Shown here: positions 1 through 64,000 of the stretch, one piece after another
How positions within the stretch are numbered: the stretch's first letter is position 1
Layout of the letters: each line of letters begins with the position of its first letter
Source: an uncultured Acidobacteriota bacterium
GTDB lineage: Bacteria; Acidobacteriota; Vicinamibacteria; Vicinamibacterales; UBA2999
Direction of reading: 5' to 3'
Assembly: GCA_963814955.1 (NCBI GenBank)
Contig: CAWFEX010000008.1
Location: forward strand, 755,992 to 819,991
DNA length: 64,000 bases
Notes under the pieces: generated by a model
Seen by the model: the letters and a program-made list of their open reading frames with translations, nothing else
What the model was told of the DNA's origin: nothing
Database searches by the model: none
Program-made: the position numbers and the translations under genes

Positions 1-203
1 CGTCCGTGACCGTCACGGGCAACTGCGCCCAGATTCTGGGCACGGCGACGGTCAACGGTACGCCGGATCGTTCGGATTCCAGGTGGACGTATGCGACAAC
101 GGCGAGCCCGGCAAGGATGCCGACACGTTCTCGATCGTCCATGAGTGACGGCTACACCGCCGGTGGCACGTTAGGCGGCGGCAACGTTCAGATTCACAAA
201 TAG
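1..203 (+). pseudogene. 3' end of a secreted-protein gene (C-terminus ...GEPG...GGNVQIHK), with two compensating frame changes as sequenced
   Basis: The middle of ORF 6..203 reads as Arg/Ser filler (PDRSDSRWTYATTASPARMPTRSRSS). The -1 frame from ~59 to ~140 reads protein-like YAGSFGFQVDVCDNGEPGKDADTFSIV and rejoins MSDGYTAGGTLGGGNVQIHK*. The gene begins upstream of the window. Confidence 0.4.
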
Positions 204-216
204 ACAGGGGAACGCC

Positions 217-692
217 ATGAAGCAACTAACTTGTGTGTGTGCGATTGTCGTTCTCGGGCTGGTTGCCATCACGACGGTCCACGTCAGTGCCGCCGACGGC
301 GAGCATTCGGTCACCGGTGCCGCGAAAGGCCTCTTCGGCGCCGGGGCGGAGCTGGGCCCTGTCGCGCTCGAGGGAATCGATGATGGGCACAGGCGTGTTC
401 ATCGAGGCCGACGGCTCAGCGTCGGGAACATTCCACGCCGTGCTGCAGGGAAGCTCGCTGGGGTCACTCGCGGGAGGTCACGGTGGAGGGGAACGTCAGC
501 GAGGGCTCGGTCGCGGCCGACGGTCGCGCGACCTTCAGCGGCACCGCCTCGCTCGACTTGGGGGACGGAGCGCCGCCTCTGCCGAGCGTCGCGTTCAGCG
601 TCACTGCGGCAGCGGACGGTGTGGTACTGAAGATCGACTCAATAACGTTGCCGGCCGCCAGACTCACCGCCGGTGCCGTCACCATCGAGTAG
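217..692 (+). pseudogene. Small exported protein (signal peptide); the frame changes twice as sequenced
   Basis: The signal peptide is MKQLTCVCAIVVLGLVAITTVHVSA. Sensible sequence continues +1 at ~386 (TGVFIEADGSASGTFHAVLQGSSLGSLAG) and +1 again at ~478 (VTVEGNVSEGSVAADGRATFSG...LTAGAVTIE*, stop at 690-692). The uninterrupted frames degrade into Arg-rich filler. Confidence 0.45.
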
Positions 693-809
693 AAGGGACC
701 GTGGCGTGGTTGCTCGTCACCGTCGGTATGGGAGGCAGGGGCCAGGCTGTAAGTAGGACGACGCGACAGCGGTAGTCTGGAGGCTCTTCGTTCAGGGACT
801 ATCGTCTAT

Positions 810-1199
810 CTAGACAGAATGAGCGGTCACCGAGCATTCAGCCCACGCCCCTCGAATGGCGTTGATCAGTTCATTCACACTCTGCTTTGGGACGAAGCTT
901 GATGCCCCGGCGGCCAGCGCTTCAGTCCTGATCCGATCGTCGAACAGGGCGGTGATCAGGATCACTTTGGCGCGCGAATTCGTCTGCAGGATCCGACGGC
1001 ACACTTCCAGCCCGTTGACGTGCGGCAGGTGCACGTCGACAACGGCCACGACCGGCTGAAGCCGCGCGGCGGCCTCGGCTACCTCCCTGCCGTCGACGGC
1101 GACTCCGACGACGTCGCAGTCGAGCGAAAGAACACGCTTCAGCGCCTTCAGGACACCGGGATGATCATCCGCGAGCAGGACGCGGGGCCGGGTCGGCAT
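810..1199 (-). CDS. Stand-alone response regulator receiver (CheY-like, no output domain)
   Basis: 129 aa with VLLADDHPGVLKAL...VVDVHLPHVNGLEV...VILITA...SFVPK receiver motifs. Its ATG overlaps the TAA of the upstream kinase (TAATG), which suggests translational coupling. Confidence 0.85.
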   Translation of the reverse strand: MPTRPRVLLADDHPGVLKALKRVLSLDCDVVGVAVDGREVAEAAARLQPVVAVVDVHLPHVNGLEVCRRILQTNSRAKVILITALFDDRIRTEALAAGASSFVPKQSVNELINAIRGAWAECSVTAHSV

Positions 1200-4100
1200 T
1201 ACGGCTTCGCGGGATTGAAGGCGCCGTGCGACGCGTGGACGACCAGCAGGTGCTCGATCATCTGCCGCATGTCTTCGATGTCCTTGACGAAGAAGCCCGC
1301 CGCCCCCGCCTGCTCCATCGCATGGGCGGCCGCGCTGCGAGGCTGCATCGACAACCCGAGAACCTGAATGTCCGGGAGCTCGGCGCGAATGCGCACCGTC
1401 GCATCGATGCCGTCCATGTGCGGCATCACGATGTCCATGAGGATGACGTCAGGCCGCAGCGAGTGCGCAAGCGCGATCGCCTCAAAGCCGTTGGACGCCT
1501 CGCCGACGACCGAGAGCTGCGGCCGCGCGTTGAGAATGTTGCGGAGCGCGCTGCGCACCGGCGCGTGATCGTCGACGATGAGAATCCTGAGGGCGTCAGG
1601 AAGCGCTCGGCCGTTGTCGCCCGCCCACGCCGCGCCGATCAGTGGGAAGGCCGACGCTGCCGGGCCGGCGACGGCGGGTTGCGCGTGGCCGCGCGGCGCG
1701 ACGAGCCGCACGCGCGTCCCCTTGCCGGGCGCGCTGTCAATCTCGAAGCGGCCGCCGAGCAGCGTCAGCCGCTCGCGGATACTGAACAGCCCCCAACCCA
1801 CCTGGCCGGCCTTCGATCGCTGGTCGAGTTCTGCCGGTTCGAACCCAATGCCCTGATCCGACACGGTGATGCACAGCTGATCGTCGGGGTCGAGCCCCAG
1901 CTCCAGCGTGACGCGATCCGCGTGCGCGTGTTTGACCGCATTGAACAGGAGTTCTCGCACCGACTCGAAGAGCAGGGTGCGGACGTCCTTCCGCCCGGAG
2001 TCGGCGCGCGGGTCGCCGATGACCCGGACGTCGAGTTTGTACTTGTCGTGTGTCCAGTCTGCCAGCCACGTCAGTGCCGCGGGCAGTCCGGACTCCTGCA
2101 GCACGGGAGGAAAGAGCTCGACGTTCAGGGACCGGGCGGCGGCGATCGCTTCCTCGAGCTGGTGCTTTGCCTCTGAAAGCAGCTCGCTTGGCGCGGCGCC
2201 GCTCTCGCTGTCCTGCCTCAGCTGCTGCTCGAGATTCAATGCAACGATGACCAGCAGCTGTTGAAGGCCGTCGTGCAGCGTTCTGGCAATCTGTTCGCGC
2301 GCATGCTGTTCGGCCAGCGTCAGATCCGAGGCCATCTGGCTCAGTTGCGTCGTCCGATATTCCAATTCCGCCGTGCGCTCCTGCAGCGCCGACGCGGCGC
2401 GCTGGCGATCGGTGATGTCGGTCACGAACGCGAATGCGCGTGTGCCGGCGGGCGTCGGAACGTGATTCATGCTGACTTCGATCGGAAACGTGGAACCGTC
2501 GCTGCGCACCCCGACGAGCTGCAGGCCGCCGCGCCGTTCATACCCGTCGCGAAACGCTGACGGCATCAGCCGCTCGATTCGCTGGCCGATCAGGTCACCG
2601 GACGCCCAGCCGAACATGGCGTCGAACGCGTGGTTCGCGGTCACGATCAGGCCCTGCGCGTCCACCGACACGATCCCTTGCGTGGCGGTCTCGAGCAGCG
2701 TCCGCAGCGCGCGATCGTGTTCCTCCTCGCGGCGCGCCTGCCGCGCCTCCTCCGTCCGGCGCTGCTGGCTGAAGTCGAGATCGAGCCCGGTGAGCCGCGT
2801 GACATTGCCGTCGGCGTCGCGGTCGACGCGCCCCCGGCTCTGGATCCACGACATCGTTCCGTCTGGCCGCACGATCCGGAACGTGCTCTCCCACGAATCC
2901 TTCGTTCTCGACGTCCACATTTCATGGCGCAAGGCGAGCAACCGCGGGCGATCGTCTTCGTGCACGCGCGTGACCCACGCGTCTGGCGTTGCGGGTTCAT
3001 CGGGCGCGAACCCGTACAGGGAACGGAATTGTTCGTCCCAGTCAACCTGATTGGTCGCCGCGGCCCACGTCCAGGAGCCGCCGGTCGACGCTTCGAGCGC
3101 GATGCGGAGCCGCTGTTTCTGCTCGCGGAGCGCCGCCTCGCCCCGGGTGCGCTCGATGGCGTCCCAGGTCCGTTCGCCGACGTCGCGAACGAGCTCGACC
3201 TCTGACGCCGTCCAGACGCGCGGCGCGACGTGATTGGCGCCGAAGGCGGCGACCATCCGTCCGCCCTTGAACAGCGCCGTTCCGATGAACGCTGCTATTT
3301 GCCGCGGCTGCCAGTGTCGCCCGGTCGGCGGCGTTCAACCGCGGATCCGTCTGCGCGTCGTCGATGACGATGGTCTCGCCGCGCCGGAGCGCCTCGCGCA
3401 GCTCGTCGCCCACCGAGATGCCCGGTGGCTGTCCGGCGAGCGGCGGGACCCCATGCGTGTACTCACGGCGAATGGTGTACTCGCCGCCGCCGAATTCCGC
3501 GTAGCCGACGCGGGTGACGCCAAGGTGTTGTCCGAGAAGTCGTGCGGCGGTCTCCTGAACGTCACCGGGATCGCTCAGCGGCCGAAGCGCGTCGTTGAGC
3601 CGAAGGAGAAACCCCAGCCGCTCTTCCTTTGTACGCAGCTCGGCTTCGGCCTTGCGGTGCTCGAGCGTCGCCCAGATCCGGTCGGCGACGTCCTGCACCA
3701 GCGCGATCTCCTCCGGGGTCCACACGCGCGGCTCGCGGCTGTGAACCGCGAACGCCCCGACGAACCGGCCGTCCTTGACGAGCAGTGGACAGATGTAGGC
3801 GCCGATGGCCGCCGCCTGCAGCACCTTGCGCTCGGCCGCCGAATGCGGCTCGGTCGACGTGTCGTGGACGAACAACGTGCCGCCTTTCAGGATTTCGTCG
3901 GTGCGGGTGCCGCCCATGTCGGTCCAGCGAAAGCGGCCGGCCAGCGAGGGAACGCCATCCACGTAGTCGTTGACGACGGTGCAGTCGTCGCCCTCGATCT
4001 CGCCGTAGATCACGCGGTTGACGTGGAGGTGCGTGCCCAGCAGTCGGCATGCCTCCTCGAGTACGCGCGCAGGGTCGGCAAACTCCCGGATCGTCTCGTT

Positions 4101-4655
4101 CAGTTTGCGCAGGAACGCCTGCCGATCATTGATCCGACTCAGCGCCTCCTCCGCGCGCGCGCGCTCGCCCGCCGCCCATGTGCGCTCGGCGGTCACCTCG
4201 ACCAGCGCGATCTGATCGCGTGTCCAGGTGCGCGGCGTCGAGCTGTGGACGCCGAATACTGCGACCCATCGACCTTCTTTAATCAGCGGCACGCCGACGA
4301 ACGACGCAATCTCGCTCGCGAGGAGCTGCTCACGCTCGGCGTCCGTGAACCGTGTGTCGGTGCGGGTGTCGCTGACCACGACCGCCTCGCCGCGGCGGCA
4401 GGCATCGACGACGGTCTTGCCGAAGCGCGCCACGTGACCTCGACCGGCGAATGGCGGGACGCTGCGTGCATACGACCGACTGACGACGAACTCGTTGCCC
4501 TCGATCTGTGCGTAATTGACTCGGCTCGCCTGGAGATACTCGCCGATCAGCCGGACGGCGGCCTCCTGGATTTCGACCGGATCCTTGAGGGGGCGCAGTC
4601 GCTCGTTCAGCGTGAGGAGAAAGTGCCACTCGGCCGACATGCGTCGAGTCAGCAT
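1199..4655 (-). pseudogene. Hybrid sensor histidine kinase: 3xGAF, 2xPAS, HisKA_3/HATPase, REC; one +1 frame break near 3297-3307
   Basis: ORF 3042..4655 carries two complete GAF domains, each ending ...H(S)xxPRxWTxxEIALV. The third GAF continues in ORF 1199..3256 (LAAA|QIAAFIGTALFKGGRMVAAFGANHVAPRVWTASEVELV). Downstream are PAS domains, the H-box TLHDGLQQ, an ATPase (DQGIGF...GWGLFSIRERL) and a receiver (ILIVDDHAPVR...ILMDIVMPHMDG). Confidence 0.85.
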
Positions 4656-4906
4656 TCTAAAGTAGTGGTCGCACGATCAGAACTCAGCCGTTACATAAAC
4701 TGGTCGCACCGCCGGGCTCTTCTATGAAACAAGGCCTCGAGTTTAATCAGTCTTTGTAACCTTGATGACAATTTCGTCCATACTGTCCAGCACTCCTTCA
4801 CAGACTGCGCGCAAACCAGGAGGACTGGCCACAGACTGCGTGCCCCTTTCGCGCTCGCCGGCCGCTGGGCTTGCACTCCCCCATCGTGTCGGAGTGCCCT
4901 CCGACG

Positions 4907-6996: not shown

Positions 6997-8596
6997 ATGA
7001 CTTGCCAAACCTTGATGAGCCGGCCGGCGCTGGCGCTTGTCGCAGGCGCATTTCTCGCAGCGTGTTCTTCGCAACCGGCAGAATCCCCGGCGGGCGCCAC
7101 ACCAGACGCAGATTCGAAGGCCGCAGAGCCCGCTCCGGAACAGGCTCTCCTCGAAGACCTGGTCGTGGCGAACCGGATTCTCACGCGCGAGGTAGGCATC
7201 CTCGACATCCAGGCGCACGTGAGCGCGCGCAGCCAGACGAATCCAAACCACTGGTACATGGCGCGCTTTGTCGCCCCAGGCGGCGCGAGCCTCAGCGACA
7301 TGGTCGAGTACCGACCTCGAGAGCACGCCGGTCAAAGGCCCGCGCAACGACAATGCACGTGAAACGTTCCTGCATGGCCAGATCTTCAAGGCCAGACCCG
7401 ACGTCATGGCTGTCGTGCATGCGCACACGCCGGAGTTCGTGGCGTTCGGCGTGAGTTCCGTGCCGCTCTACTGGGGTCCAAACCGGCCGGTCCCGGTCTG
7501 GGATATTCGTCCAGTCAACAACGGCCGCAACGGCATCGTCAGCAGCAACCCGCTCGGCCAGTCGATGACGGAGAAGCTCGGCAACAATGAGGCAGTGTTG
7601 CTCTGGGGGCACGGAATCTCTCTCACGGCCAAGTCGCTGCCGGAAGCGATTCATCGGGTGGTTGCCCTCCGCACGAATGCCCGGTTGCAGCAAGCCGCCA
7701 TATCGATTGGCAATCCGGCAACGCCCGAAGCGATTGTCGACGACGCGGCCGCGGACCAGACGGCGTGGGATCACTACAAGCGCATCGATTTGAAAGCGGA
7801 GAACGGGAAAGTACCGGCGAATCCGGCGCCGATGCCGTCGAAGCCGACCGATCCCATCGCCGCTTCGAGGCACGACCTGATGATCGCCAATCGCATCCTC
7901 GCGGACGACTCCGTCGGGCTCCTCGATACCTCGGGTCACGTCAGCCTGCGCAATCCCAACAACCCGAACAGCTACTTCGTGGCCACCGCTGCGCCCGGCA
8001 GCGTTACCGGCAACGACATCGTCGAACGCGATATCACCAAGCCGGGCCCCGACACGATGGGACTGTCGATTGACGACGAGATCTACAAGGCGAATCCGAA
8101 TGTGATGGCCGTGCTGTACTCGCGGGCGCCGGACATTGTTGCCTTCACACAGGGCGTGCAGCTGCGTCCCGTAGTCAACGGCGCCGCGTTCGTTGGTGAC
8201 GGACTGCCGATGTTCAACATGTCGACGCTGGATCCGAAGCAGCCGTTGCTGTCGAATCCGGCGTTCGGAAAAGGCGTTGCCGCCGCGCTCGGCACGAAGC
8301 AGGGGGTGCTGTTGTCCGGGCACGGTCTGGTGATGACGGGGCGATCCATTTACAACCTGGTCGGCACCTCGTATCAGCTGCGACAGAACGCCAGAATCCA
8401 GCAGCAGGCGATGGCGCTGCGGGGCAAGGTCACGCCGCTCAACGACATTACGGTGCCGCCGGAACCGCCAGGCGAAGGGAACGCCAATGCTGGTGCCGGT
8501 CCGCAGGGCGGGCGCGGAGGCCGCGGGGGACAACAGCTCGGTCCGCCTGAAGGGCGCGACTGGGTCTACTGGGCACAGACCATCCCGCTCGACTAA
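6997..8596 (+). pseudogene. Lipoprotein with two tandem class II aldolase/adducin-like domains; one +1 frame break at 7308-7312
   Basis: The lipobox is LVAGAFLAAC. Domain 1 continues across the break (SDMVEY|DLESTPVKGPRNDNARETFLHGQIFKARPDVMAVVHAHTPEFVAFG). Domain 2 is HDLMIANRILADDSVGLLDTSGHVSLRN...NPNVMAVLYSRAPDIVAF. Confidence 0.8.
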
Positions 8597-25879: not shown

Positions 25880-26366
25880 TCATTCCTCTTGTTCATACTC
25901 ACCGGTTGCGTAGTCATATGACGCACGAACCAGGTTCCAGATCACTTCCAGCTCCTCTTCATTTCTTGGTCCCCATACCATCATCGTGCGGCTGATCGGA
26001 TGGGGTTCGCCCCACCCCTTCACCAGAACTTCCTCGGTACAACGCCCGTGGAAGGGTCATGTGCAGACTGCCGTCGTGCGCGGGATGCAGGTGCGCAAAT
26101 TCCCGACCCCGTTGGAAAGCGCCATCGGGCCCGCGCGCCAACGCCTCGTCGAGGTGAAAGGCGCGCGCGCCTGGAACCGACACCAGGCTCTTGCCCACGC
26201 TCACGCCAGGAAGCGACTGGGCGCGCATGAACAACTGCTCTTGCATGTGCGGCGGGGCGATCTGAGAGACCTGCTTGTGTGGCTCGGGATGTTCTCGAGA
26301 CGGACGGGTCGTGTCGGGTTTTGGCCCCAACCGCTGCGGGATCTCAAAGCGTATCCGCTGTTTCAT
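25880..26366 (-). pseudogene. Small luciferase-like-domain family protein (EFAHLHP..DGSLH motif); +1 frame break at 26036-26040
   Basis: MKQRIRFEIPQRLGPKPDTT...VSVPGARAFHLDE...REFAHLHPAHDGSLHMTLPRALY, which continues in the +1 frame as EEVLVKGWGEPHPISRTMMVWGPRNEEELEVIWNLVRASYDYATGEYEQEE* (stop at 25880-25882). Confidence 0.7.
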
Positions 26367-26436
26367 TTGCTTCTCGTGCGTTTCGGCAGCCTCTTCGGGG
26401 AAGAAGAAAAAAGCTGGAGGCGGTGTCGCAGCGGTT

Positions 26437-38300: not shown

Positions 38301-40905
38301 CCTCCCAGGCGACCTCGGCGATCTGGTGTCTCAGCTGGAAAGCCCCGCACCCTGGGTGTTCCCAGGCCATGACATCTCGCGCTCGGCCGAGATTCCGGCG
38401 CCGGAACCCGCGTCAACGCCAGTGCCTGTCCCGCCACTTGTGATGGAAAACGGACTGGGCGGTTTCGCGCGAGACGGCCGCGAGTACGTCGTCGTGCTCG
38501 ACGACGACCGCGAGACACCGCTGCCCTGGGCGAACGTGCTCGCGAATCCTGCGTTCGGGACGATCGTGAGCAGCTCCGGATCCGCGTTCACCTGGGCTGG
38601 AAACAGCCGCGAGAACCGGCTCACGCCCTTCGCCAATGATCCCGTGACGGATCCGACGGGCGAAGCCGTGTACGTGCGGGACGAGGAGTCGGGCGCAGTG
38701 TGGGGCGCCACGCCGGGCCCACTGCCGCGTCGCGCCAATGGCGGCCGGTGGGTCATCCGTCATGCCGCGGGAGTCACGCGGTATCAACATGCAGTCGCCG
38801 GCCTTCAGCAGGAACTTGCCATTTGTGTGGCGCCGGACGATCCCGTGAAGCTGGCGGCGCTTACGCTGACCAACACGAGCAATGTGACAAGGCAGATCAG
38901 CGTGTTCGGGTACGTCGACTGGTGGCTGGGTCCGCCGCGCGCGGGTCATCAACGCTTCGTAGTCACCGAGATGGACGACGAACGTCACGTCATGTTGGCG
39001 CGCAATGCGTTCAATCCCGAGTTCGGCGAGGCCGTGGCGTTCTGGCGCGCGACGGCTGTGCCGCGATCTCATACCGCGGATCGCAGTGAATTCATCGGAC
39101 GCAACCGCACGCTGAGCGAGCCGGCGGCGCTGTTCCGCGAGCGACTCGGCGAGCGCACTGGCGCCGGTCTCGACCCGTGCGGAGCGCTGCAGGTGGTGCT
39201 CGAGATCGGGCCGGGCGAATCATGCAGCGTGGCATTTGCTCTGGGCCAGGGACGCGACCGGGCCCACGCAATGGAGCTCGCCGCACGCTACGGCTCCCTC
39301 ACGCAGGCGATGGAAACGTTCGCGGCGACCGAGCGCCGGTGGGATGAGACGCTCGACGTCCTGAAGGTTCGCACGCCGGACGATTCGTTCGACCTCATCG
39401 TGAATCGGTGGCTGGTCTATCAGACGTTGAGTTGCCGCGTATGGGCGCGAACCGGCCTTTACCAGCCCGGCGGCGCCTTCGGCTTCCGCGATCAGCTCCA
39501 GGATGTGCTTGCGCTGCTTTACACGCGGCCGGATCTTTGTCGCGCACATTTGCTGCATGCCGCCTCTCGGCAGTTCGTCGAGGGTGACGTGCAGCACTGG
39601 TGGCATCCGCCCAGTGGACGTGGAACGAGAACACGGTGTTCGGACGATCTGCTCTGGCTGCCATACGCCGTCGCCACCTACGTGTCGCAGACGGGCGACG
39701 AGGCAGTGCTCGACGAAGTGATCCCATTCCTTCAGGCGCCACCGCTGGAGCCCGATCAGTCGGAAGTGTATTTGCAGCCGCATACGTCCTCGGAGACCGC
39801 GTCTCTCTTCGAGCACTCGGTGCGCGCCATCGCGCGCGCCATGAAATATGGCGCGCACGGACTTCCGCTCATCGGCTCGGGCGACTGGAACGACGGACTG
39901 AACCGCGTGGGACATGGTGGCCGGGGGGAGAGCGTCTGGCTCGGATGGTTCCTTGTCAGTGTGCTGAACGAGTTTGCCCCCATCTGCGATCGCCGCGGAC
40001 GAAACGAGCTTGGAAAGGCCTACCGGGACGAGGTGCGCTGGCTCACCGGCATGCTGGAACTTTCGTGGGACGGCGACTGGTATCGGCGCGCGTACTTCGA
40101 TGATGGGACCCCCCTCGGCTCCGTGCAGAACGAGGAGTGCAAGCTCGATTCGCTTACACAGTCCTGGGCCGTGCTCGCGGGCACGGCGCAGCCTCGCCGC
40201 ACCGAGCGCGCCATGAACGCCGTTCGCGCCCATCTGGTGCGGCGCGACGCACAACTCGTGCTGCTGCTGACACCGCCGTTCGACCGGATGACGCACGATC
40301 CCGGCTACATCAAGGGATACCTGCCCGGCGTCCGGGAGAACGGCGGTCAGTATACGCACGCTGCGATCTGGACCATCATCGCGCTGTCGCGACTCGGCCA
40401 AGGCGACGAGGCGATGGAACTCTTCCACATGATCAATCCAATCAACCATATGCGGACGCACGACAGCGTTGCGCGCTACCGCGTCGAGCCTTACGCTGTG
40501 GCGGCCGACGTCTATGCGCATCCGATGCACCTCGGTCGCGGCGGTTGGACCTGGTATACGGGTTCGGCGGGGTGGATGTACCGGGCTGCCATACAAGAGC
40601 TTCTCGGACTCCGGCGACACGGCGCGACGATCAGCGTGAACCCGTGCATTCCAGCGGTGTGGCCACATTACTCGCTGGACTGGAGAGTGGGTCGCACGCG
40701 TTATCGCTTCACCGTATCGAATCCGGATCACCGGTCTCAGGGTATTGCGAGCGCAGAATTCGATGGAGTCGTCGTCGATGCGCGCGCCATCCCGCTGCAG
40801 GACGATGGCGGGGATCACGAGGTGACGATCGTCCTCGGCGCCGGACCGAGGGTCGATATGCCCATTGCAGCTGTGGGCGCTGTGGAGCGTCGCGATTCAC
40901 ACTGA
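32369..40905 (+). pseudogene. ndvB: Cyclic beta-1,2-glucan synthase-like giant protein (membrane GT84 region plus C-terminal GH94 phosphorylase-like region); two +1 frame breaks
   Basis: About 2845 codons in total, the size of the Cgs/ChvB/NdvB family. The N-terminus has AEWLLDNFHII...TMGELWAWPSALKLALIDHLR, the GT motif is ITLDSDTRLP, and multiple TM segments follow. The breaks are at GNYQY|RAFGVPGLGLKRGLATELVVAPYA (36517-36522) and TSYAEI|[23 protein letters not shown] (37389-37393). The C-terminus has [25 protein letters not shown] and [13 protein letters not shown]. Confidence 0.85.
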
Positions 40906-40947: not shown

Positions 40948-43383
40948 GACGGAACAACCGGCGAACGCACTAGAGCCAGCTCGGCACGGCCGTACCATCG
41001 TGGCCGACGGCGTAAGGCGCCCAGACGAGGGCCACCAGCAGCACCCTGATCGTGCTTTTCTTCGGCTTGCAGGCAAGCCTTGTCGAGCGGCTCGGATGCG
41101 GCATCGAACCGTGCCTCGATCGACGCGATCTCTGCGCGCAACTCTTCGTCCAGCTGCTGCAGCTGCTCTTCGACCGCCCCGACGGTCTCCTTCGCACGGC
41201 CGATGTCCTGCGTCTCCTTGAGGGTGCGACCCACGCCTCGCGCTGCGGTGGTGGCGCGCCCGAGCGTCGACGCGGTGATGGTCTTGCGGCCGAGAAACGC
41301 ACCTATCAGCGTCGTACCGAAGGAGATGGCCGTCTGCAGCGTCTGCGCCTTGGCCTGCTCCGCCTCCCGATCCACCGCCTGCTGCGTTCGCCGCAGCCGC
41401 TCCTGCGCCGCCGCGATCTTCGGCGCGTATTTCCGCCGCAGCTGTTCGACCATGGCATCGCGCGCCTCGCGCGAGGACTGCTGCAGCCGGATTCTGAAAT
41501 CACGCTCGCTCTCGCCCGGGTTCGATACCTGGCCCGACTGAGCAGCCCGCAGCAGCTCGAGCGCATGGCTGCTGTACACCCAGGCCTCGAAGTCTTTCGT
41601 CCACGCACCCACGCTCTTGGCCGTAACCGTGTTCGCCGGAAGTTCAGCGAAGCCGACGCCGGCGGCGGGCGTTTGTTCCAGATCTGACGGATCAACATCG
41701 ACGAGTGTCCCGGCGTTCCAGTCGACAGGGACAGGTCCACCAGCCAACGGCGTCATCACCGCGACGTCGAACGGCGCATCGATTTTTGCCGAGGTGTGCA
41801 CGCATTGCCCTCGTGCGGATCCATAGATCATCGGGCGGTACGTCACGTCGATGGCGCCGGCTTTCCTCGATGCAAGGAAGTACTGGGACACGCCGGCTGG
41901 GAGCATGGGCTGCTTGGCTGTCGTCACCACGGACTGACGGGCGGACGGACGCGCGGATTCAGGCGCGGCCTGCCTGCCAGCCATCAGCCGTCGAATCTCG
42001 TTGCGGCCGAGTGGACCACGCAGGTATGAAAGTGCCCATCGCGATTCGAAGATGACGGGCGCATCTTCGTGCACATTGTTCATGACGAATATCCGATTCG
42101 CCAACCCGGCGAGAGTCTGTTCCATCGCCTGCCGATCGAAGGGCTGGCCCGCTGTGGTGGCCGACCCCTCCAGCCCGTCCAGCACGCGCGCCTGGTCGCG
42201 TGCCGTCTGCAGCCGGCCGAGAAACCATGTGCCGCAGTTCGCGAGCCCCTTGTAATCGAGATCGACGGGATTCTGCGTTGAAAGCACGATGCCGGTGCCG
42301 AACGCGCGCGCCTGCTTGAGCAGCGTCAGCAGCGGCGCTTTCGACGGCGGATTCGCCACCGGCGGAAAGTAGCCGGCGATTTCGTCCATGTACACGATGG
42401 CTCTGAGACTGGTCGTACCGGACTGACTCCGCATCCATCCCACGACGTTGTTGAGAAGCAGGGAAACGAAGAACATCCGCTCGGCGTCTCCGAGATGGGC
42501 GATCGAGAAAATCGTGACGCGCGGCTTCCCGTCCGCGGTATGGAGAAACTGCCCGACATCGAGCGCGTCCCCCTGCATCCACACGTCGAACCCGGGAGCG
42601 GCGAGCAGATTGTTGAGAGACATCGCCAGCGCGAACCGATCTTTCTGGCGGAAAGAACGTGTCGACATCCATGACGCCGATGCGCTGCACGGGCGGCGTC
42701 TGAATCTGCTGGATGATGCCCGGAAGGTCGAGGTCGCGTCCCTGCGCCCAGGCGGACTGGAAGATCGTCGAGAGCAGGATGTGCTCGCGGCTCTTGATCG
42801 GGTCGGCATCCGCCCCTACCAGACCGAGCAGGCTTGTGGCCGTTGTCTGAATCCGATCGCGGAACAACTCGGCGTCGCCGGCCACGGACGCGCCTGGCGC
42901 GGCAAACGACTTGAGAATGGAGATCGGTATGCCAGCCGTAGAGCCGGGCGTGTAGATGGTGAACTCCGCCGCGTTCTTCAGGCGCGCGATGCGCGCCCCG
43001 TCCTGTCCCCAGGACGCCAGGCCGGCCTGCCACTTTGCTGCCTGATCGGCGGCAAGGTCAGCGACGCTCTTGCCCTTCCGGCGGGCCTCCTCTTCGTCCA
43101 CCCACGGTGCGAAGTCTTCCGGCGCGAGACCAGGAAACGTCAGCAGAAGATTGCCGAGGTCACCCTTGGGATCGATGATCAGTGCCGGAACGCCGTCGAT
43201 GGCCGCTTCCTCGATGAGCGCCAGGCAGAGACCCGTCTTGCCGCTGCCGGTCATGCCAACGCAGAAGGCGTGCGTCACGAGATCCTTGGAGTCATAGAGC
43301 AGCAGGTCATCGGCTGCCCGGTTGGCCGTGAGGTCGTAACGTCTGCCTAAATAGAACTGCCCGAGCTTTTCGAAATCCTGCAT
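40938..43383 (-). pseudogene. HerA/FtsK-like P-loop ATPase (DUF87-type) with a C-terminal coiled-coil region; +1 frame break near 42645-42651
   Basis: The N-terminus has Walker A in [11 protein letters not shown]...[40 protein letters not shown]. The break is at VMDVDTFFP|[15 protein letters not shown]. Downstream are Walker [12 protein letters not shown] and [34 protein letters not shown]. About 815 codons in total. Confidence 0.75.
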
Positions 43384-55434: not shown

Positions 55435-55461
55435 CCGCCTAGATACTTACCTTCCTCAGTA

Positions 55462-55558: not shown

Positions 55559-58226
55559 TCAGCGACCTCGCACAGAGCGGTCGACGGCGGGCTCGTCTTC
55601 GTCGGTATTCGGAGCAGATGGCAGAGATGCAAGCAGCTTCATGATGACTTCGTCATCCACAGGCTTGACGAGGTGTGCGTCGAAGCCAACGTCCTTCGAC
55701 TTCTGACGATCCTCGTCCTGCCCCCACCCCGTCAGCGCCACGAGCAGAAGATCCCGGCCCCACGGCTGTTCCCGAATCCGACGGCACACCTCGTAGCCGT
55801 CCACGACCGGCAGCCCGATGTCGAGCAGAACCGCATCGGGCCGGATCCGTTCGGCAACACTGATTGCCTCGATGCCGTCGTGAGCGACGTGCGTCTCATG
55901 GCCGTTCAGATTCAACAACGTCGCGAGCCATTCCGCGGCGTCCTCGTTGTCGTCGACGATCAGGATGCGACGCTGCGTCGTGGACGGAGGTCCGGCGGCG
56001 GCCTCCCGTGAGATGGACTCGGGCAGTTCGGCCACACTGGGCAGGCGAACAACGAATTCGCTCCCGCGGCCAAGTCCCTCACTGTGGCCTTCGACCGTAC
56101 CTCCGTGCATCTCCACCAGCGTCTTCACCAGCGTAAGACCGATGCCCAACCCGTCCCGTGAACGCTCCAGCGACGTATCGACCTGCGTGAACATCGCGAA
56201 CAGCCGGGGAAGCTGGTCGGCAGCGATGCCGATGCCGTTGTCTCTCACTCTGACAACGGCGTGCGCGGCGTCCTGCTCGACAGTCAGCCACACGTGGCCA
56301 CCTTTGTCGGTGAACTTGCACGCGTTGTTCAGGAGGTTCCCGAGGACCTGAGTGAGTCGCATCGGGTCGGCATCGACGTAGAAGGGCTTGAGCGGCAACG
56401 TCACCGTCAGTTCATGGTTCATGGTCTTGTAAAGAGCACGAGTGGCCTCGACCGCATGGTTGATGATGGGGGCCAGTTCGACCCGCTCTTTGCGGAGTTC
56501 AATCTTGCCGCGCGTGATGCGGCTCATGTCGAGCAGGTCGTCCACCAGCCGGACCATCTGGCCGACCTGGCGCTCCAGCATTTCGGACGCCGCGTGGATG
56601 GCTTTTCCGTCGCCGCTCAGGCGTAGCGCTCGAACCGCGTTGCTGATGGGCGCAAGGGGATTGCGCAGCTCGTGCGCCAGCATCGCCACAAACTCGTTCT
56701 TGCGGCGGTCCGCTTCGGACAGATCGGTCGCCACACGCCGCAAGTCGTCCTCAAGCCGCTTCCGCTGCGTCACCTCCTGGCTTACGGTCGCAAGCGCCAC
56801 CGGACGTCCGTCGGCGCCCGGCAATGTCAGCACCTTGTACGCCATCCAGCGAGCCTCGCCGGTCTTGAAGTGTCGAAACCGAATCTCGATCTCGCCGTGA
56901 CCCTTTTCAAGGACGGACGGAAAGAACTCGTCCATCATGCGTTGCTGGTCTTCGGGGAAGAAGAACGAAAGCAGCGGTGTGCGTCGGGCTTCCTCGACGC
57001 TGTCGAGCCCGACCATCTCCAATCCCGCCCGGTTGACGAAGAACGGGATGCCGTTCAGATCGCACATGCCGATGAAGTCGGTGCTGTTTTCAACGAGCGT
57101 GACGAATTTCTCGCGATCCGCCTCGGCCCGCCGCTGCAACGTGACATCGCGCGCGATCTTTGACGCCCCGACCACGGTACCGGCGGCGTCCTTGATCGGC
57201 GAAATCGTGAGTGAAACGAGGATGCGCTGACCGTCCGATCGTGCACGCTCGGTTTCAAAATGTTCGATCCGTTCGCCCGCCTTCAAGCGGGCAACAATCT
57301 CGTCTTCTTCCGCGATCCGTTCGGGAGGGATGATCAGAGAGATATGGCGGCCAACAGCCTGATCGGAGGTATACCCGAATACATGCTCCGCACCGGCATT
57401 CCAGCTCTGAATGACACCGTCGAGCGACTTGCTGATGATGGCGTCGTCCGAGGATTCGACGATGGATGCGAGCAGACGCGCCGTCAGAAGCTGGTTTGCC
57501 TTGTCCTTCTCCAGACCGCGCTGCACCGTAATGTCTCGGAAGATCAGCACGCATCCGGCAACCTGACCTCTTTCGTCGGTGATCGGGGCGGCGCTGTCAT
57601 CGATCGGACACTCGCGCGCCGTCCTTCTGAATCAGCACAGTGTGGTTCGCGAGGCCGACGACGACTCCTTCACGAAGGGCTTTGGTTGCCGGATTTTCGA
57701 CCGGCCGATGAGTCTCCTCGTTGACGATTCGAAAAACCGCATCCAGCGGTTGACCGAGGGCATTCCCCAGTGTCCAGCCGGTCAACGACTCGGCAACGGA
57801 ATTCAGATTGGTGATGTGGCCTTGCACGTCGGTGGTGATGACGGCGTCGCCAATGCTGCGAAGCGTTACCTGCAACAATTCGTGCCGGTCGTCTGCCCGA
57901 GCCCGGGCTCGGCGCATGGCCTCGCCAAATCCGATGATCAGTGCACATGTGAAAAGATACGCAACCAACCCGACGACATTTGCGATGTTGTCCAGGCGAA
58001 GACTGCCTCGAGGTGGAATGAACAGATACGCACACGCCACGTAGCCGAGGATCGTCACGATCACGGCCAGACGATACCCGCCCACCCACGCTGCAGCGGC
58101 AACAGCCCCGAACAGCGTGACGAGCGGCAGCGTGTCACCCATCAGGGGATCGAGCGCCCAGCGGAGCAGGACGGCCGCCACAACGGCGGCGATGGCTAAT
58201 GCGTAAGAAATAGCCGAGCTTCGCAA
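55559..58226 (-). pseudogene. Hybrid sensor kinase: DUF4118-like membrane module, 3xPAS, HisKA/HATPase, REC; +1 frame break near 57598-57608
   Basis: ORF 57597..58226 carries TM helices and the first PAS, and ends ...LIQKDGARVSDR*. The PAS continues in the +1 frame as (I/V)DDSAAPITDERGQVAGCVLIFRDITVQR, which leads into ORF 55559..57550. Downstream are the H-box FVAMLAHELRNPL, G-box GLGIGLTLV and receiver ILIVDDNEDAAE...LDIGLPVVDG. Confidence 0.85.
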
Positions 58227-58446
58227 TTCGGTCTCACAGCCGGCATGCTAGCGCAGCCAGCGCCGGTAACTCCAACACCACGGGCGTCGAGTCGTGAATA
58301 TCAACGTCATCGCTTCTCAGGGCTCAGTGGGCATGGCTTGTCCTCGTTGCGAGAGGACAGGTTAATCGGACACGGGGCCGGTGCGGCAATTACTCGCGGC
58401 CATGCGCATCATATCCACTGGCAGGGGGGTTGCTCAACGAAGGTAT

Positions 58447-59304: not shown

Positions 59305-59356
59305 CGAGCACCGCTCGCGTGGCGTTGCAGGCGCTCGAAAACCAGAGGGAATGGGA

Positions 59357-59379
59357 GGGGCCGCCCGGCGGACGGCCCC
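59357..59379. terminator. Weak hairpin between convergent genes
   Basis: 7-bp stem ggggccg ... cggcccc with a 9-nt loop, between the stops at 59304 (+) and 59387 (-). Confidence 0.35.
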
Positions 59380-59386
59380 GACACCG

Positions 59387-59956
59387 TTACTTGGCGGTGA
59401 TGATCGGGTGGCCGCGACGGTTCTGCTGCCAGCAACCCTCGTTTGTATCGAAACAGACAGGCGTTTCTTCGCCTTTGGTGACCACCAGCACGCGATCCGG
59501 CGTGACGCCGAGGCTGGCCATGTAATCTTTGACCGCGTTCGCGCGGCGCTCGCCCAACGCCAGGTTGTACTCACCGGTGCCACGGTCGTCGCAATGACCC
59601 TCGATCGTGACCCGCGTCGATTTCCACCGCATCAGCCACTCGGCATTCCGCTGCAGAACGACCCGCGCGTCTTCACGAAGCGTCGAATCGTCCAGATTGA
59701 ACAGGACGTCGGCCAGCGGCCGTTCGGCGTTGAGCTGGTCCAGCGTCTTTTGCGCGAAGAGCTCCTCTTCACTCAGCGCCGTGGAGGCCGTTGCCGGTGC
59801 GGGCGCAGCCGTCCGCGAAGGGGGAGGGGGAGGCGCATCGACGACGGGCGACGGAGGGGCATTGCTGGCCGTTGCCGGCGGTACCTTCTTGCCGCATCCC
59901 ATCGACACGATCGCCGTACACAGAATCGTCAGCCCTACGAAATACAGGCGTCTCAT
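59387..59956 (-). CDS. pal: Peptidoglycan-associated lipoprotein (OmpA family)
   Basis: GGAGGA RBS. Lipobox IVSMGC, a Pro/Ala-rich linker, and VLFNLDDSTLREDARVVLQRNAEWL...VTIEGHCDDRGTGEYNLALGERRANAVKDYM. Confidence 0.85.
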   Translation of the reverse strand: MRRLYFVGLTILCTAIVSMGCGKKVPPATASNAPPSPVVDAPPPPPSRTAAPAPATASTALSEEELFAQKTLDQLNAERPLADVLFNLDDSTLREDARVVLQRNAEWLMRWKSTRVTIEGHCDDRGTGEYNLALGERRANAVKDYMASLGVTPDRVLVVTKGEETPVCFDTNEGCWQQNRRGHPIITAK

Positions 59957-60092
59957 ACTTTCGTTCCTCCTTGTCCCACCGATGTCATCAATAACGGTGA
60001 TTTCGGCTGATGGAGGCGAAGTCTTGAGACACGTACTCGACGGTAGGCGGCGGTTTTTGGACGGCGCCGAATCAAGGATGCAGTGCTGTGAA

Positions 60093-61632
60093 CTAACGGG
60101 TCGAATCCTCTGGCTCCAGAGACGTTTTCGCGACGGCCGCCGCATCAGCCGTGCGGTGTTCCAGCGCCGCCTCGAACAAATGCTGAATCTTCTCGCTCTC
60201 CCGGTATTCCGCGAGAATCGCGCGGCGGCCGCTCGTCTGGGCGTCGTCAATCGCATACGCGAGCACGGTGGCCATCACGGTGCCTTCTTCCGTGTTGGTC
60301 TGTGCAAAACGTGTCTCGAATGCGCGCAACACAGGCTCGAACGACGCGTCGTCCCACTGTTCCTGCCCTGCATCGAGACGGACGAACTCGCTCAGGACCG
60401 AGGCAAACGATTCGCTCGGGGGCCGATGCCAAAACGACACGTCGGGACCGAACTCCTCGACATACATGGGGAGATAGACCGTTCCTCGGGCGGGCACGCG
60501 TGTCTGGAGTGCGGGATTGAACCGGCGGACCTCGTCGGCCGACAGCCCCGTCCGCCGCGTTATCTCCGCCAGCGGAATCGGTCGAAGCGCTCGCATTGCA
60601 TAGATCCGGGTCTGGGGAGTTTCGGCCGTCAGCACGTTGACGGTGAACGTGTTTCCAAAAACCATCTCCGAATACAGATACGAGCGCGGCCCATATGTCC
60701 GGTAAATATCGCGGTAGCGGTAAAGCGAGATCTTCCGAACGTCTCTGGCGAACTGCGATCCAAGGAAATACTGATCGCGAACACTCGTGCCGCCGAGGCG
60801 TTCGCCGCTGATCAGTGTCCGCCCTACGTTGGTTCCGCCGCTGTGGTGTTCGGACAGCGCAGGGATGAACGATCCGTACTTCGTGGCGAGGATCGTCAGG
60901 TACGCTGCACAATATGGCGCTTGCGTCGTCTGGCTGTAGCCCTCGATTTCATGCGGCGAAAGACGGTTCAATCGCCTCCAGTTCGTCAGGAGCCACTGAC
61001 AGAATCCAACGGCCCGCGCGGCTGAACGCCGTGTGGGATGGAAGCCTGATTCGATGGCGGCCTGCGCCAGGCCAATCTCCCCCGGGACGCCGAATCGCTC
61101 ATAAATCGCCGCCCACTCCTTCAGGAAGCTGCCGTATCGGCGCGCCTGCGGGAGGACGAACTGACCGCGCGTCGGGTTGTGGACGACCGGACCCACCAGC
61201 GGTTCGAGCAGCGCGGCAACCTGCTCGCGGCGGTCGTCCAGTCTTCTCGCGAGCTGTCGGCCTGCCAGGAGTCCCTTGGCGCGATCGTCGTACCAGACCG
61301 CCTCGCGCGCCCAATCCCCTTTCGTGGGAAACACTGCCAGGAGCCGTCCATCGACGGCGCTGCCAAAAGCGATGAAGTTGTCGGGAATCGTGAAGATGTG
61401 TTGCCAGAACGCGTACCCGGGCCGGAACGACACCATCGCGGCAAGGTCGTCACTCCAGCGGCTTTTCGATACACGTGTACGCCCCCTCCGCGTCCCCCGG
61501 CGTGCCGAGGCTCGACCCGGAGCTCGAGGACAGACCGACTCCCGGCGCCTGCGCGCCGACGGAGGGCACAGTGAGGTCGAGACTTGCAATCGCCGCAACG
61601 GCAGCCACTGCCAGCCCGATCGTTTTTCTCAT
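60093..61632 (-). pseudogene. Exported lytic transglycosylase (SLT domain plus LysM-like segment); +1 frame break between about 61452 and 61482
   Basis: The signal peptide MRKTIGLAVAAVAAIASLDL... (frame of ORF 61450..61698) stops at 61450. The body continues in the +1 frame (RWSDDLAAMVSFRPGYAFWQHIF...). The SLT catalytic region is GLAQAAIESGFHPTRRSAARAVGFCQWL. Confidence 0.7.
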
Positions 61633-61837
61633 TTGCGAATGGCGGAATGATAGCCGAAGCAGCGGCGTTGCCATTCGCCTGCCATCGATAAACTGCACAA
61701 CGAATGACGTAGTTGGCGCTCACTACGTCGGTTTTATCGAAATCTGTAAGCAGAATTACGAATAACGGGAGCGTGGTGTACTATCCGCTCGTGCCGGACG
61801 GCCGGTTCCGAAATCCGGCGATACGGGAGGCTCGATC

Positions 61838-62494
61838 ATGCGCCTGATTCCACTCACTGCGGCAGCGTTGATCCTGTTCACGTGCGAACCCGCCACGGCC
61901 CAGAACTGGCGCGAGTTTACCAGTCAAAAGGACTTCTTCATCGTCAACTTCCCCGGTGAACCCACGGTGAAAGACGTCACTTATCCGACCGAATTTGGCA
62001 TCAACTTGCCGGGGCGCGTGTATAGCGTCGAGGATGGGTCGAACCGCTACTCGATCACCGTCGTGGATTACGCGCCCGGGGAACGGATCCATGCGGACCG
62101 CGCCAGGAATTGCCAGGGATATCCCGATACGTGCACGAACCGCTGGATGAATGACCTGCGAGGCGCGCTCGACTACGCCGTGTCGAAGTACATTCAACAG
62201 AAAGGCACGGTGACGTACTACGCGTTCGCCGACTCGGACCGGGTTGAAGGACGCCGGGTACAACTGACCAACGCCAACGAGTCGCGTACCTTCGTCGCCA
62301 TCTACATGCACCGGAATCGCCTCTATATTCTGGATGGCACCGTTTCTCCGAGTGCGCCGCCGCCGGCGCTGTTTCAGCAGAATTTTGGATTCTTCGACGA
62401 GGAGGGCGTCAGGGTTCGCTATCGGACGCTGTACTCGAACCTGTACCCGGCCCCTCCGCGGGAGGAGACCCGGGGCCGGCTGCAGGGTTGCTAG
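61838..62494 (+). CDS. Exported hypothetical protein (218 aa)
   Basis: GGGAGG RBS. Signal peptide MRLIPLTAAALILFTCEPATA. Good coding character. No family was recognised. Its 3' end overlaps the convergent Sel1 ORF. Confidence 0.65.
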   Translation: MRLIPLTAAALILFTCEPATAQNWREFTSQKDFFIVNFPGEPTVKDVTYPTEFGINLPGRVYSVEDGSNRYSITVVDYAPGERIHADRARNCQGYPDTCTNRWMNDLRGALDYAVSKYIQQKGTVTYYAFADSDRVEGRRVQLTNANESRTFVAIYMHRNRLYILDGTVSPSAPPPALFQQNFGFFDEEGVRVRYRTLYSNLYPAPPREETRGRLQGC

Positions 62495-64000
62495 CGACGG
62501 TGGGCTCGCCACAATTCTGGAACTTCGACTCCACGCACACGGCAACGCGCGCCTTCGCGTCCTGAAGTTGATCCGGCCCTAACATCGCGGCTACCTTGTC
62601 GCGGCTCCCCGCGGCCCCGATGTCCGCCCGCGTCTGCGCCACTGCTAACCAGACGTACGCTTGAACGAAGTCGCGCGTTCCGCTGCGGCCGGTGGCGTAC
62701 ATCAGGCCGAGCTCGGCTTGAGCTGGCGGATATCCTTGTGAAGCGGCAACGCGATACAGCCGCATCGCCTCGGCGTTGTCCACGGGCATGCCGTCGCCGC
62801 GCACGTACATCTCGGCCAGGTAAAAGGACGCGGGTGGGAATCCCGCCTTTGCCGCGCGCTCGAACCATCCTCGTGCTTCGGCAGGATTTCTCGACACGCC
62901 GGCGCCGCGGAGGTACATCAGCCCGACGCCAATCTGCGCCGGCGCATAGTTCTTTTCGGCCGCGAGTCGGAGCCATCGCAACGCCTCGGCCTGGTTCCGG
63001 GTCACGCCGCGGCCGTCCAGAAGCGCTCTGCCGATTTCGAACTGCCCCCTCACATCGCCCTGATCGGCGGCACGCCGATACCATCGTGCCGCCTCCCTCT
63101 CGTCGCGGCGCACGCCCCGGCCCATCGCATGGAGAGTGCCGAGCACGTACGCTGCGTCTGGATTTTCGCCGTCAGCGGCAAGTTGAAACCATCGAATCGC
63201 TTCCGTCTCGTCTTTCGCGACACCCTGGCCCTCGAGGTACATCACCCCGAGCGCGTACTGTGCCCCCGTGTGCTTCTGCTCGGCGGCAAGGCGATACCAG
63301 CGGCTCGCCTCCGCGTCATCTTTCGGAACGCCACGACCCGCGCCGTACATGAACCCAAGCGCGAACTGCGCGACTGCCTCCTTCTGATCCGCGGCGAGCC
63401 GATACCACCGCAGCGCCTCGCGATCGTCCTTGACGACACCGCGACCCTCCGCATACATCCTTCCCAGACCGTATTGCGCGCCGGCATGCTGTTGCCCGGC
63501 AGCGCGGCGTACCATTCGAGGGCTTCCGAGTCGCTTTGCTCAACGCCACGGCCAGTGGCAAATCGGTTGCCCAGATCGTATTCAGCGCTCGCGAATTGTT
63601 GATCCGCCGCGAGCCGAATCCAACGAACCGCTTCGGCGTCGTCGGCAGGAACACCGCGGCCGCTCGCGTACATGGCTCCCAGCGCGAATTGCGCAGCGGC
63701 ATGTTTCTGGTTCGCGGCGGTCCGGTACCAGCGCACGGCCTCGACATCGTTCTGGGCGACACCCTCGCCTTCTGCAAGAAGAACCCCGAGTACTGTACTG
63801 AGCGTCTGCGTATCCGTTCTCCGCTGCCAGAGCAAACCATCGACTGGCCTCTGCCGGAGCCTTCGTCACGCCTCGACCGGCCTCGTACCAACCGCGCGAG
63901 CTCGAATTGCGCGGGCGCGAAGCGCTGCTCAGCGGCGCGGCGATACCACGCCGCGGCCCTGGCGTCATCGTGTGGCAAGAGCACGCCTCGTCGATAGAAG
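62409..64000 (-). pseudogene. Sel1-repeat (TPR-like) protein, 5' end outside the window; three frame breaks as sequenced
   Basis: More than 12 consecutive Sel1 units (AQYxLGxMYxxGxGVxxDxxEAxxWYRxAA). The repeat register continues across the breaks at 63885-63889 (FELARL|YEAGRGVTK), 63790-63798 (ADAQYS|LGVLLAEGEGV) and 63509-63513 (SEALEWY|RRAAGQQHAGAQ). Confidence 0.8.

Follow-up and report, generated by a model that had tools for sequence, protein, structure and literature searches.

A 64-kb stretch of DNA (64,000 nucleotides, hereafter the window) from a 1.32-Mb contig of an uncultured Acidobacteriota bacterium (a Vicinamibacterales-like soil bacterium) carries 16 reading-frame breaks, and sequence comparison indicates that these are very probably errors in the assembled consensus rather than mutations in the organism, so that the split genes would be artefacts and not decaying genes. 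The size of the contig and the name style of its sister (‘contig_N’) suggest a long-read metagenome assembly, and the pattern of the breaks fits the signature of context-specific consensus errors in such an assembly, possibly at a methylated motif. An initial annotation of the window had judged a technical insertion bias more likely than gradual pseudogenisation, a view that is supported by intact orthologues, unchanged selection, a count of zero nonsense codons and a link to sequence context.

Number and Kind of the Frame Breaks

All 15 breaks initially reported, in ten genes, were recovered when each was checked against protein families or homologues, and one further break brings the number to 16. 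The insertion bias described at that stage (13 of 15) holds, with 15 of the 16 breaks now adding bases (13 single bases, one addition of two bases, and one complex change of net +1) and one removing a base. The inserted base is mostly G or C, and deletions are less frequent. About 10 of the ∼55 genes in the window are hit, a share far above the usual pseudogene content, and extra single bases are spaced at about one per 3–4 kb (∼3 per 10 kb). Codon-usage and GC3 frame tracking proved too noisy at 64% GC to call breaks, and a likelihood change-point method placed junctions up to 25 nt away from their aligned positions (3293 vs. 3310 in the GAF kinase; 61452 vs. 61470–61476 in the SLT-like gene).

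Comparison With Near-Identical Contigs

The initial annotation had pointed to orthologous loci as a check, and at 14 of the 16 breaks the extra bases are missing from near-identical contigs of four further assemblies, in which the tested genes are whole. Three of these contigs (L161, L162, and L166) carry short-read-style names and are 96–99% identical to the window. L161, at 96.4% identity over 22 kb, encodes unbroken NdvB (2844 aa) and HerA (803 aa) proteins; L162 (96.8%) has an unbroken SLT gene, and L166 (98.7%) an unbroken GAF kinase of 1145 aa. A second long contig, contig_86007, is 96.5–99.5% identical to the window, is free of 14 of the 16 breaks, and has its own private breaks elsewhere. 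The divergence of these relatives from the window (0.5–3.5%) means that they are not the same clone. The matches listed in a scan of genome contigs were relatives of 81% identity or less, and a scan of metagenome contigs with the Ser/Thr kinase gave none above 65% identity and no synteny of use.

Indels were polarised by three-way alignment of the window with L161 and L168 (contig_86007, 99.5% identical in that region). Five insertions (36520, 37389, 41077, 42647, and 51242) and one deletion (52290) are private to the window, while L168 has four private insertions, three private deletions and split genes of its own. A comparison of the two long contigs over 62 kb gives 46 clean single-base indels, each contig being the longer at 23 of them; 38 of the 46 involve a G or C. 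Four window-private single-base indels of the same kind as the genic ones lie between genes: a missing C at 734 (vs. both L166 and L171), an extra G at 6828 (CATC[G]GTG; alignments to L166 and L171) located 2 nt upstream of a start codon, and the extra G at 51242 and missing C at 52290 from the three-way alignment. Gene fragmentation tracks contig size and assembly style, not relatedness to the window.

The Broken Genes

The 3′ end of a post-COAP-1 domain protein (1..203, + strand; 281 aa in contig_86007) has two breaks. Where a missing base near 59 had been proposed, alignment to the intact 281-aa orthologue (L171) instead gives about two extra bases at 67–70 (GGA[T]C[G]TTC), followed by an extra G at 137 (CGATC[G]TCC); the repaired 68 aa match NF041523 over positions 55–115 of 115 (71.9 bits), spanning both junctions. 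The neighbouring small exported protein (217..692, + strand; 156–157 aa in relatives) contains two inserted bases, G at 379 (GAATC[G]ATG) and T at 464 (TGGGG[T]CAC), the latter missing from both L166 and L171, and its homologues P0362, P0364, and P0370, together with the 157-aa protein of L171, show contiguous residues across frames 1, 2, and 3. The GAFx3-PASx2-HisKA_3-HATPase-receiver kinase (1199..4640, − strand) has one extra base at 3310–3311 (GCGGCT[G]CCAG) that is in neither L166 nor L171. Its repair completes the third GAF domain, and more than 100 homologues are each a single protein of about 1145 aa. The tandem class II aldolase (6997..8596, + strand) has one extra C at 7311, immediately 3′ of GTAC (GAGTA[C]CGAC), and Aldolase_II coverage rises on repair from positions 53–182 to 2–182 of 183.

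The luciferase-domain (PF17648) protein (25959..26436, − strand) carries one extra base at 26036–26037, in the + strand GG of CGGTAC, which reads GTAC[C] on the gene strand. Repair extends PF17648 coverage from 1–21 to 1–63 of 63, with four alternative repairs scoring 79.2, 79.0, 78.6, and 73.8 bits, so that Pfam scores do not fix the exact base. In the NdvB-like cyclic glucan synthase/GH94 gene (32369..40905, + strand), the two inserted bases, C at 36520 (CAGTA[C]CCG) and G at 37389 (ATC[G]GTAC), each touch GTAC; neither is present in L161 or L168, and one 2867-aa homologue aligns through frames 2, 3, and 1. The HerA-like ATPase (40970..43383, − strand; 803 aa in relatives) holds two extra G when compared with relatives including L161 and L168: the one at 42647 accounts for the break already noticed in this gene, and a second at 41077 had been overlooked. 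A further candidate at 40966 lies past the HerA stop and is present in contig_86007 too, and is therefore natural.

The DUF4118-PAS-histidine kinase-receiver gene (55559..58226, − strand) has a net +1 within 57600–57631, beside CATCGATCGG, and PAS_4 covers 1–109 of 110 positions through the junction. The SLT-like lytic transglycosylase relative (60093..61674, − strand) does show the net +1 first ascribed to it, although not as a plain insertion: at 61470–61476 the window reads ACGTGTA on the gene strand in place of GCCTAC in L162, a garbled 7-for-6 replacement, and contig_86007 has two adjoining GTACGC units at this site. The repaired protein is covered over 100% of its length by homologues of 512–526 aa. 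The Rhomboid-Sel1 repeat protein, which runs off the window (62409..64000, − strand), has three breaks, all at GTAC: two insertions, of C at 63888 (CGTA[C]CAA) and of T at 63794 (GAGTAC[T]GTAC), and one deletion, of G at 63509 (GGC[-]GTACC).

Split genes had been expected in any annotation of the contig, and public gene calls bear this out. Eleven stored gene products from the public 1,319,276-nt contig (NCBI/ENA) match the translation of window segments exactly, and four of these products are fragments: P0498 and P0500 of the GAF kinase, P0483 (window 40941–42623) of HerA, and P0497 (60096–61436) of the SLT-like protein.

Sequence Context and Proposed Origin

GTAC is touched by 6 of the 16 precisely mapped window-private indels against an expectation of 1.76% of positions (P = 2e-7), and because of this strong enrichment the breaks are not uniform noise. 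The typical change at the motif is GTAC to GTACC, with further extra bases following ATC. On the + strand, the extra base follows GTAC at 7311, 36520, and 63888; at 26036 and 37389 it precedes the motif, which places it after GTAC on the − strand. The luciferase and SLT breaks are likewise at GTAC. The sister contig repeats the pattern: among its private errors are GTAC[C] (48224 and 63258), [G]GTAC (52524), and the loss of a C following the motif (62289). Of the 46 indels between the two long contigs, 11 touch GTAC. Inside GTAC, mismatches between the assemblies show a weak enrichment of about 2-fold (P 0.03–0.35), which adds little to the indel signal.

In the proposed mechanism, single extra bases would be written in at base-calling or consensus building about once per 3–4 kb. 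A large share would depend on context: an extra C would be placed directly 3′ of the palindrome GTAC, which on the opposite strand appears as a G added 5′ of the motif, and an extra G would be placed after ATC. A likely cause would be modification of such motifs by the lineage, with the base-caller or polisher mis-handling the signal there, and the remaining errors would represent ordinary residual noise. Each error would shift the frame of the gene that it hits, leading gene callers to output two or more fragments.

The luciferase-like break (26036) and the PAS kinase break (∼57608), which the two long contigs have in common, could be systematic errors or real. That these two are ancestral frameshifts while the other 14 are artefacts is a tenable though less probable reading. 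Both contigs show exactly the same frame discontinuity although substitutions lie nearby, and two pseudogenes per ∼55 genes would be normal for a free-living bacterium. Against this, both breaks sit in recurrent error contexts (GTAC[C] and GATCG), and the part of the PAS kinase downstream of its break remains a 663-aa open frame with all domains kept. Also against it, chance alone would give about 0.2 coincident GTAC errors even with independent sites, an estimate from the counts.

A second alternative is that the extra bases are residual noise of a purely random kind in a long-read assembly, such as would come from low-coverage, insertion-dominated single-molecule reads, with no role for a motif or methylation. 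For about half of the mapped insertions the context is neither GTAC nor ATC (e.g., 464, 3310, 41077, and 42647), half do not duplicate a neighbouring base, and raw PacBio CLR errors are insertion-dominated, at about 8% insertions vs. 3% deletions (10.1101/2021.08.23.457338). The GTAC enrichment in the window and among the inter-contig indels, however, makes this explanation improbable, as does the recurrence of the motif-adjacent error type in the sister assembly, at two sites in the same position.

Selection and Tests for Decay

Genuine decay brings nonsense codons and relaxed selection, neither of which is seen here: no nonsense codon was found in 9,230 codons aligned to relatives, and every segment of NdvB and HerA, whether it precedes or follows a break, has a dN/dS of 0.15–0.21, so that purifying selection is equal on the two sides. 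Lesions shared with a close relative were found at 26036 and ∼57608 and were absent at the other 14 of 16 sites; mixed lesions and a deletion bias were likewise not observed. The window contains only eight homopolymers of six or more bases, none of them at any break, and homopolymer slippage is rejected on this ground.

These results bear on the proposal that the breaks are real, very recent frameshifts of the strain, through incipient genome decay or a mutator burst, and hence true pseudogenes. The breaks do stand in the deposited sequence, two are common to a second assembly, and the relatives are not clonal with the source. Such an origin is nevertheless very unlikely, since 14 of the 16 breaks occur in this assembly alone and a contig of 99.5% identity carries private indels of its own at other sites, selection is not relaxed, fragmentation follows contig size and assembly style, the breaks lie outside homopolymers, and nearly all are insertions although bacteria have a mutational bias towards deletions (Danneels et al., 2018; PMC6054270). 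It is highly unlikely, too, that the extra bases reflect a real, motif-targeted +1 insertion at GTAC/ATC in the living population, with the luciferase-like and PAS kinase insertions fixed in both strains; such strain-private frameshifts would arise, for example, if a GTAC-specific restriction system nicked the DNA and the repair were error-prone. Programmed +1 ribosomal frameshifting or transcriptional slippage restoring the proteins in vivo has a negligible probability, for although every break is a small shift with perfectly homologous continuation, orthologues 96–99% identical are single-frame and lack the extra base, the breaks have no common slippery site or homopolymer, and extra bases of the same kind also occur between genes.

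Relation to Known Assembly Artefacts

Nanopore consensus errors gather in methylation motifs not represented in the training data (Wick et al., 2019; PMC6591954). The breaks in the window resemble such errors, as described for Dcm CCWGG, in their short palindromic motif, their recurrence in independent assemblies of the lineage, their survival into the consensus, and their taxon specificity, but differ in the motif itself (GTAC with a second ATC|G context) and in being single-base insertions where those are mainly substitutions, with platform and methylation both presumed in the present case. Pseudogenes made by assembly are common, arising from assembler, platform, and low coverage, such that the count of broken genes varies widely between near-identical genomes and breaks track assembly, not phylogeny, as is the case here (Cooley and Wright, 2024; PMC11017572); the quality marker in that study was internal stops, unlike the window, which has frameshifts only.

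Frameshift-laden long-read metagenome contigs offer a further parallel, in that small indels split conserved genes and homologue-guided repair yields full-length proteins (proovframe preprint, 10.1101/2021.08.23.457338), although the ∼3 breaks per 10 kb found here correspond to a polished consensus and not to raw reads, and the insertion bias is much stronger than in the nanopore profiles quoted there. Many genes cut by small indels are also a feature of reductive genomes undergoing genuine decay, but the deletion bias, several lesions per gene, and lesions common to relatives of that process are not seen in the window (Danneels et al., 2018; PMC6054270).

Consequences for Annotation

The biological content of the window is ordinary, and the breaks are an ordinary artefact, useful as a repair list and a warning. 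Annotation, pangenome analysis, pseudogene counts, and protein database entries derived from the 1.32-Mb contig will hold truncated or split proteins, and the break coordinates permit exact repair. The GTAC to GTACC signature provides a cheap diagnostic for the remaining genome and for sister assemblies, and the GTAC-linked errors hint that this uncultured lineage may modify GTAC. Some sites resembling breaks call for no repair: at 11319 the window carries the intact version, and the pairs 16089/17207, 27792/28696, 43483/44213, 45575/47034, and 59387/60093, considered as split genes, are separate genes.

Reading-Frame Breaks in the Window

The evidence supports a generally known type of assembly artifact, here bearing a specific GTAC-linked signature, as the origin of 16 reading-frame breaks that split ten genes of the window. 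The initial annotation listed 15 of these and favored a technical origin; domain models and homologs place all 15 in the sequence, the frame arithmetic from open reading frame (ORF) coordinates is correct, the technical interpretation is supported, and the observation itself is slightly extended by a second break in the HerA-like gene. The window has a G+C content of 64% and zero Ns, and public records name homologs of its genes as Vicinamibacterales or Acidobacteriota. Window segments translate exactly into 11 stored gene products, all of which the cluster tables place on one NCBI/ENA contig of 1,319,276 nt, so that the window belongs to a megabase-scale contig. Seven are whole proteins (P0502, P0506, P0513, P0528, P0543, P0547, and P0560), and four are fragments of broken genes, namely both halves of the GAF kinase (P0498, 1202–2920; P0500, 3045–4640) and pieces of the HerA-like gene (P0483, 40941–42623) and of the lytic transglycosylase relative (SLT-like; P0497, 60096–61436), bearing out the earlier expectation that annotation would report split genes.

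In the NdvB-like cyclic glucan synthase gene, Pfam domains are cut at ORF boundaries (Glycoamylase at 2–126 then 135–218; GH94 supersandwich at 5–135 then the remainder), and a 2867-aa homolog (L001, 81% identical) aligns over 22–1413 in frame 2, 1407–1695 in frame 3, and 1696–2864 in frame 1, with extra bases at 36520 (C) and 37389 (G). NdvB homologs in other public MAGs also change frame, once each in L002 and L034 and four times in L035; breaks of this type are therefore not unique to the contig of the window. When the two frames of the GAF kinase, aldolase, and PAS kinase genes were joined and Pfam was searched again, the junctions were spanned by domains that are now complete: the third GAF domain, the first Aldolase_II domain (2–182 of 183; 53–182 before repair), and the PAS_4 domain (1–109 of 110; 1–74 before repair), respectively. 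Repair likewise extends the PF17648 match of the luciferase-like gene from 1–21 to 1–63 of 63, and gives the partial gene at the window start a match to the post-COAP-1 model NF041523 (55–115 of 115) that spans both junctions. The break reported near window position 59, in this last gene, is real; set against an intact ortholog, the sequence most plausibly carries two additional bases at 67–70, GGA[T]C[G]TTC, rather than lacking the single base first proposed.

Full-length homologs of the small exported protein (156–158 aa) align to window frames 1, 2, and 3, their residues continuing unbroken across the frames, and the repaired HerA-like and SLT-like proteins each have more than 100 single-protein homologs, of ∼800–825 and ∼500–526 aa, respectively. 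The protein P0001 aligns to the HerA-like gene in three frames, and the gene carries two breaks, that at 41077 being absent from the initial annotation. A further candidate at 40966 was rejected as a natural difference located after the HerA stop. The last 34 codons of the gene (40973–41074, minus strand) differ at 17 of 102 nt from the close relative L161 (dS 0.46), compared with ∼3% for the rest. The SLT-like break is complex, consisting of a garbled 7-for-6-nt replacement at 61470–76. The repeat pattern of the Sel1 gene shifts frame three times; once repaired, the gene encodes seven Sel1 repeats (Pfam), and its product is almost identical to a protein that a sister contig encodes without interruption.

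Comparison With Related Contigs

The initial annotation had proposed a comparison with orthologous loci, and three contigs of other assemblies, all bearing short-read-style names, carry intact versions of genes broken in the window: L161 (ENA ERZ1761309, 24.8 kb; 96.4% identical over window 30970–52952), L162 (ENA ERZ27274788, 4.8 kb; 96.8% over 58182–62981), and L166 (JGI 3300078481, 4.8 kb; 98.7% over 449–4929). Intact products include NdvB (2844 aa) and HerA (803 aa) in L161, the SLT-like protein (526 aa) in L162, and the GAF kinase (1145 aa) in L166. Apart from the replacement at 61470–76, frame-disrupting coding differences from these relatives always consist of an extra window base with identical flanks (464 T, 3310 G, 36520 C, 37389 G, 41077 G, and 42647 G). 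In-frame and intergenic indels are also present, often where the sequence diverges, and look like normal variation.

A second long contig, contig_86007 (L168–L171; ENA ERZ25039536, 112 kb), was found via cluster members and is syntenic with the entire window. Its identity to the window is 99.5% in the middle (30.9–53.1 kb) and 96.5–97% toward the ends (1–11.4 and 50–64 kb), a contrast that may reflect recombination or a consensus that is a mosaic of co-existing strains. The extra bases of the window are missing from contig_86007 at 14 of the 16 breaks; the small exported (157 aa), post-COAP-1 (281 aa), HerA (803 aa), and SLT-like (512 aa) proteins are whole, and the Sel1 protein runs uninterrupted across all three break sites. 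Several genes without breaks in the window are broken in contig_86007: NdvB is split into 2519 and 336 aa, a 557-aa protein into 164 and 219 aa, and a large 1247-aa kinase is shortened to 1122 aa, and the TrkA, cupin, YncE-like, and TPR genes (the last at its C-terminus) are likewise affected. Polarized by a three-way alignment with L161, five insertions and one deletion are private to the window, and four insertions and three deletions to contig_86007. Over 62 kb, 46 clean single-base indels separate the two long contigs; each contig is the longer one at 23 of these, and 38 involve a G or C. Across the cluster tables, the proteins are full-length on contigs of up to 44 kb (except for partial-only entries on two small contigs of 1.6 and 2.3 kb), mixed on the 112-kb contig_86007 (HerA and SLT-like full-length, GAF kinase fragmented), and fragmentary on contigs of 660 kb and 1.32 Mb. 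Gene breakage tracks assembly, not phylogeny.

Sequence Context of the Indels

The palindrome GTAC, present at 188 sites, is touched by six of the 16 mapped sites compared with 1.76% of window positions (P = 2e-7). These comprise GAGTA[C]CGA at 7311, CAGTA[C]CCG at 36520, CGTA[C]CAA at 63888, GAGTAC[T]GTAC at 63794, a missing base in GGC[-]GTACC at 63509, and ATC[G]GTAC at 37389, which equals the extra-C-after-GTAC event on the opposite strand. The luciferase-like break lies at GTAC[C] (26036), and contig_86007 has two adjacent GTACGC units at the SLT-like break site. Some private errors of contig_86007 also fall at GTAC, among them GTAC[C] (48224 and 63258), [G]GTAC (52524), and a C lost after GTAC (62289). 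A second context, recognized post hoc, is an extra G after ATC (70, 137, 379, 6828, and 37389), a trinucleotide that accounts for 1.8% of positions.

Assembly-made pseudogenes have been documented at scale (PMC11017572), and nanopore consensus errors have been described at methylated motifs absent from base-caller training data (PMC6591954). The errors of the window are similarly motif-bound, assembly-private, and recurrent. The sequencing platform here is only inferred, and insertion-dominated noise is likewise typical of PacBio CLR reads (10.1101/2021.08.23.457338).

Alternative Explanations

Both long contigs share the luciferase-like and PAS kinase breaks. The former has the same frame in each, with two substitutions in 560 nt, and the latter, within 57600–57631, shows the same discontinuity beside CATCGATCGG despite four nearby substitutions. 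These two could be real ancestral frameshifts, since the three short-read-style relatives cover neither site, but this origin is less likely than not given that both breaks occur in recurrent error contexts and that even independent errors would be expected to coincide by chance at ∼0.2 GTAC sites.

Gene decay, which would make the breaks real pseudogenes, is opposed by dN/dS values against L161 of 0.19, 0.17, and 0.15 for the NdvB segments before, between, and after its two breaks, by HerA values of 0.16 and 0.21, and by zero window stop codons across 9,230 codons aligned to L161, L162, and L166. Bases are added at 15 of the 16 breaks, whereas bacterial mutation is biased to deletions (PMC6054270 and references therein), and window-private indels are also intergenic (734, 6828, 51242, and 52290). 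Bypass of the breaks by recoding is countered by the lack of a slippery sequence common to them, and is unnecessary since orthologs use one frame for these proteins. Slippage and classical homopolymer miscalls are ruled out because none of the only eight window homopolymers of at least six bases lies at a break and half of the mapped insertions duplicate no neighboring base. The GTAC-linked signature of the assembly artifact helps repair, although its biological interest is small.

Other Differences Between Contigs

The TrkA gene of contig_86007 (L169) lacks nearly all window Gs over ∼30 nt (window 14739–14767), as well as stretches of ∼370 and ∼210 nt. A PQQ-dependent dehydrogenase gene (11416–13425; PF01011 positions 1–595) is wholly absent from this contig, with ∼99% identity on either side; either the contigs differ in the presence of this one gene or a mis-join has occurred. 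Most of a Ser/Thr kinase-PD40 gene (4907–6826) is missing from L166 (4930–6572), with 98.7–99% identity on either side and no obvious direct repeat at the junction. A 24-nt tandem copy-number difference from L161 at 45742–45768 (GACGCAGCGACCGTTTGTACCTGG), in frame if coding, is common to contig_86007.

GAF, sigma-54-interaction AAA+, AAA lid, and C-terminal Ser/Thr protein kinase domains are joined in a single open frame at 48856–51222 (minus strand), in which no DNA-binding HTH was detected; L161 (788 aa) and contig_86007 both carry this architecture intact. Lastly, a 159-aa ORF at 17207–17686 (minus strand), upstream of a PilT-like gene (16089–17210) and in another frame, is unchanged on several public contigs, and its 90%-identity cluster is represented by a 371-aa "twitching motility protein PilT."
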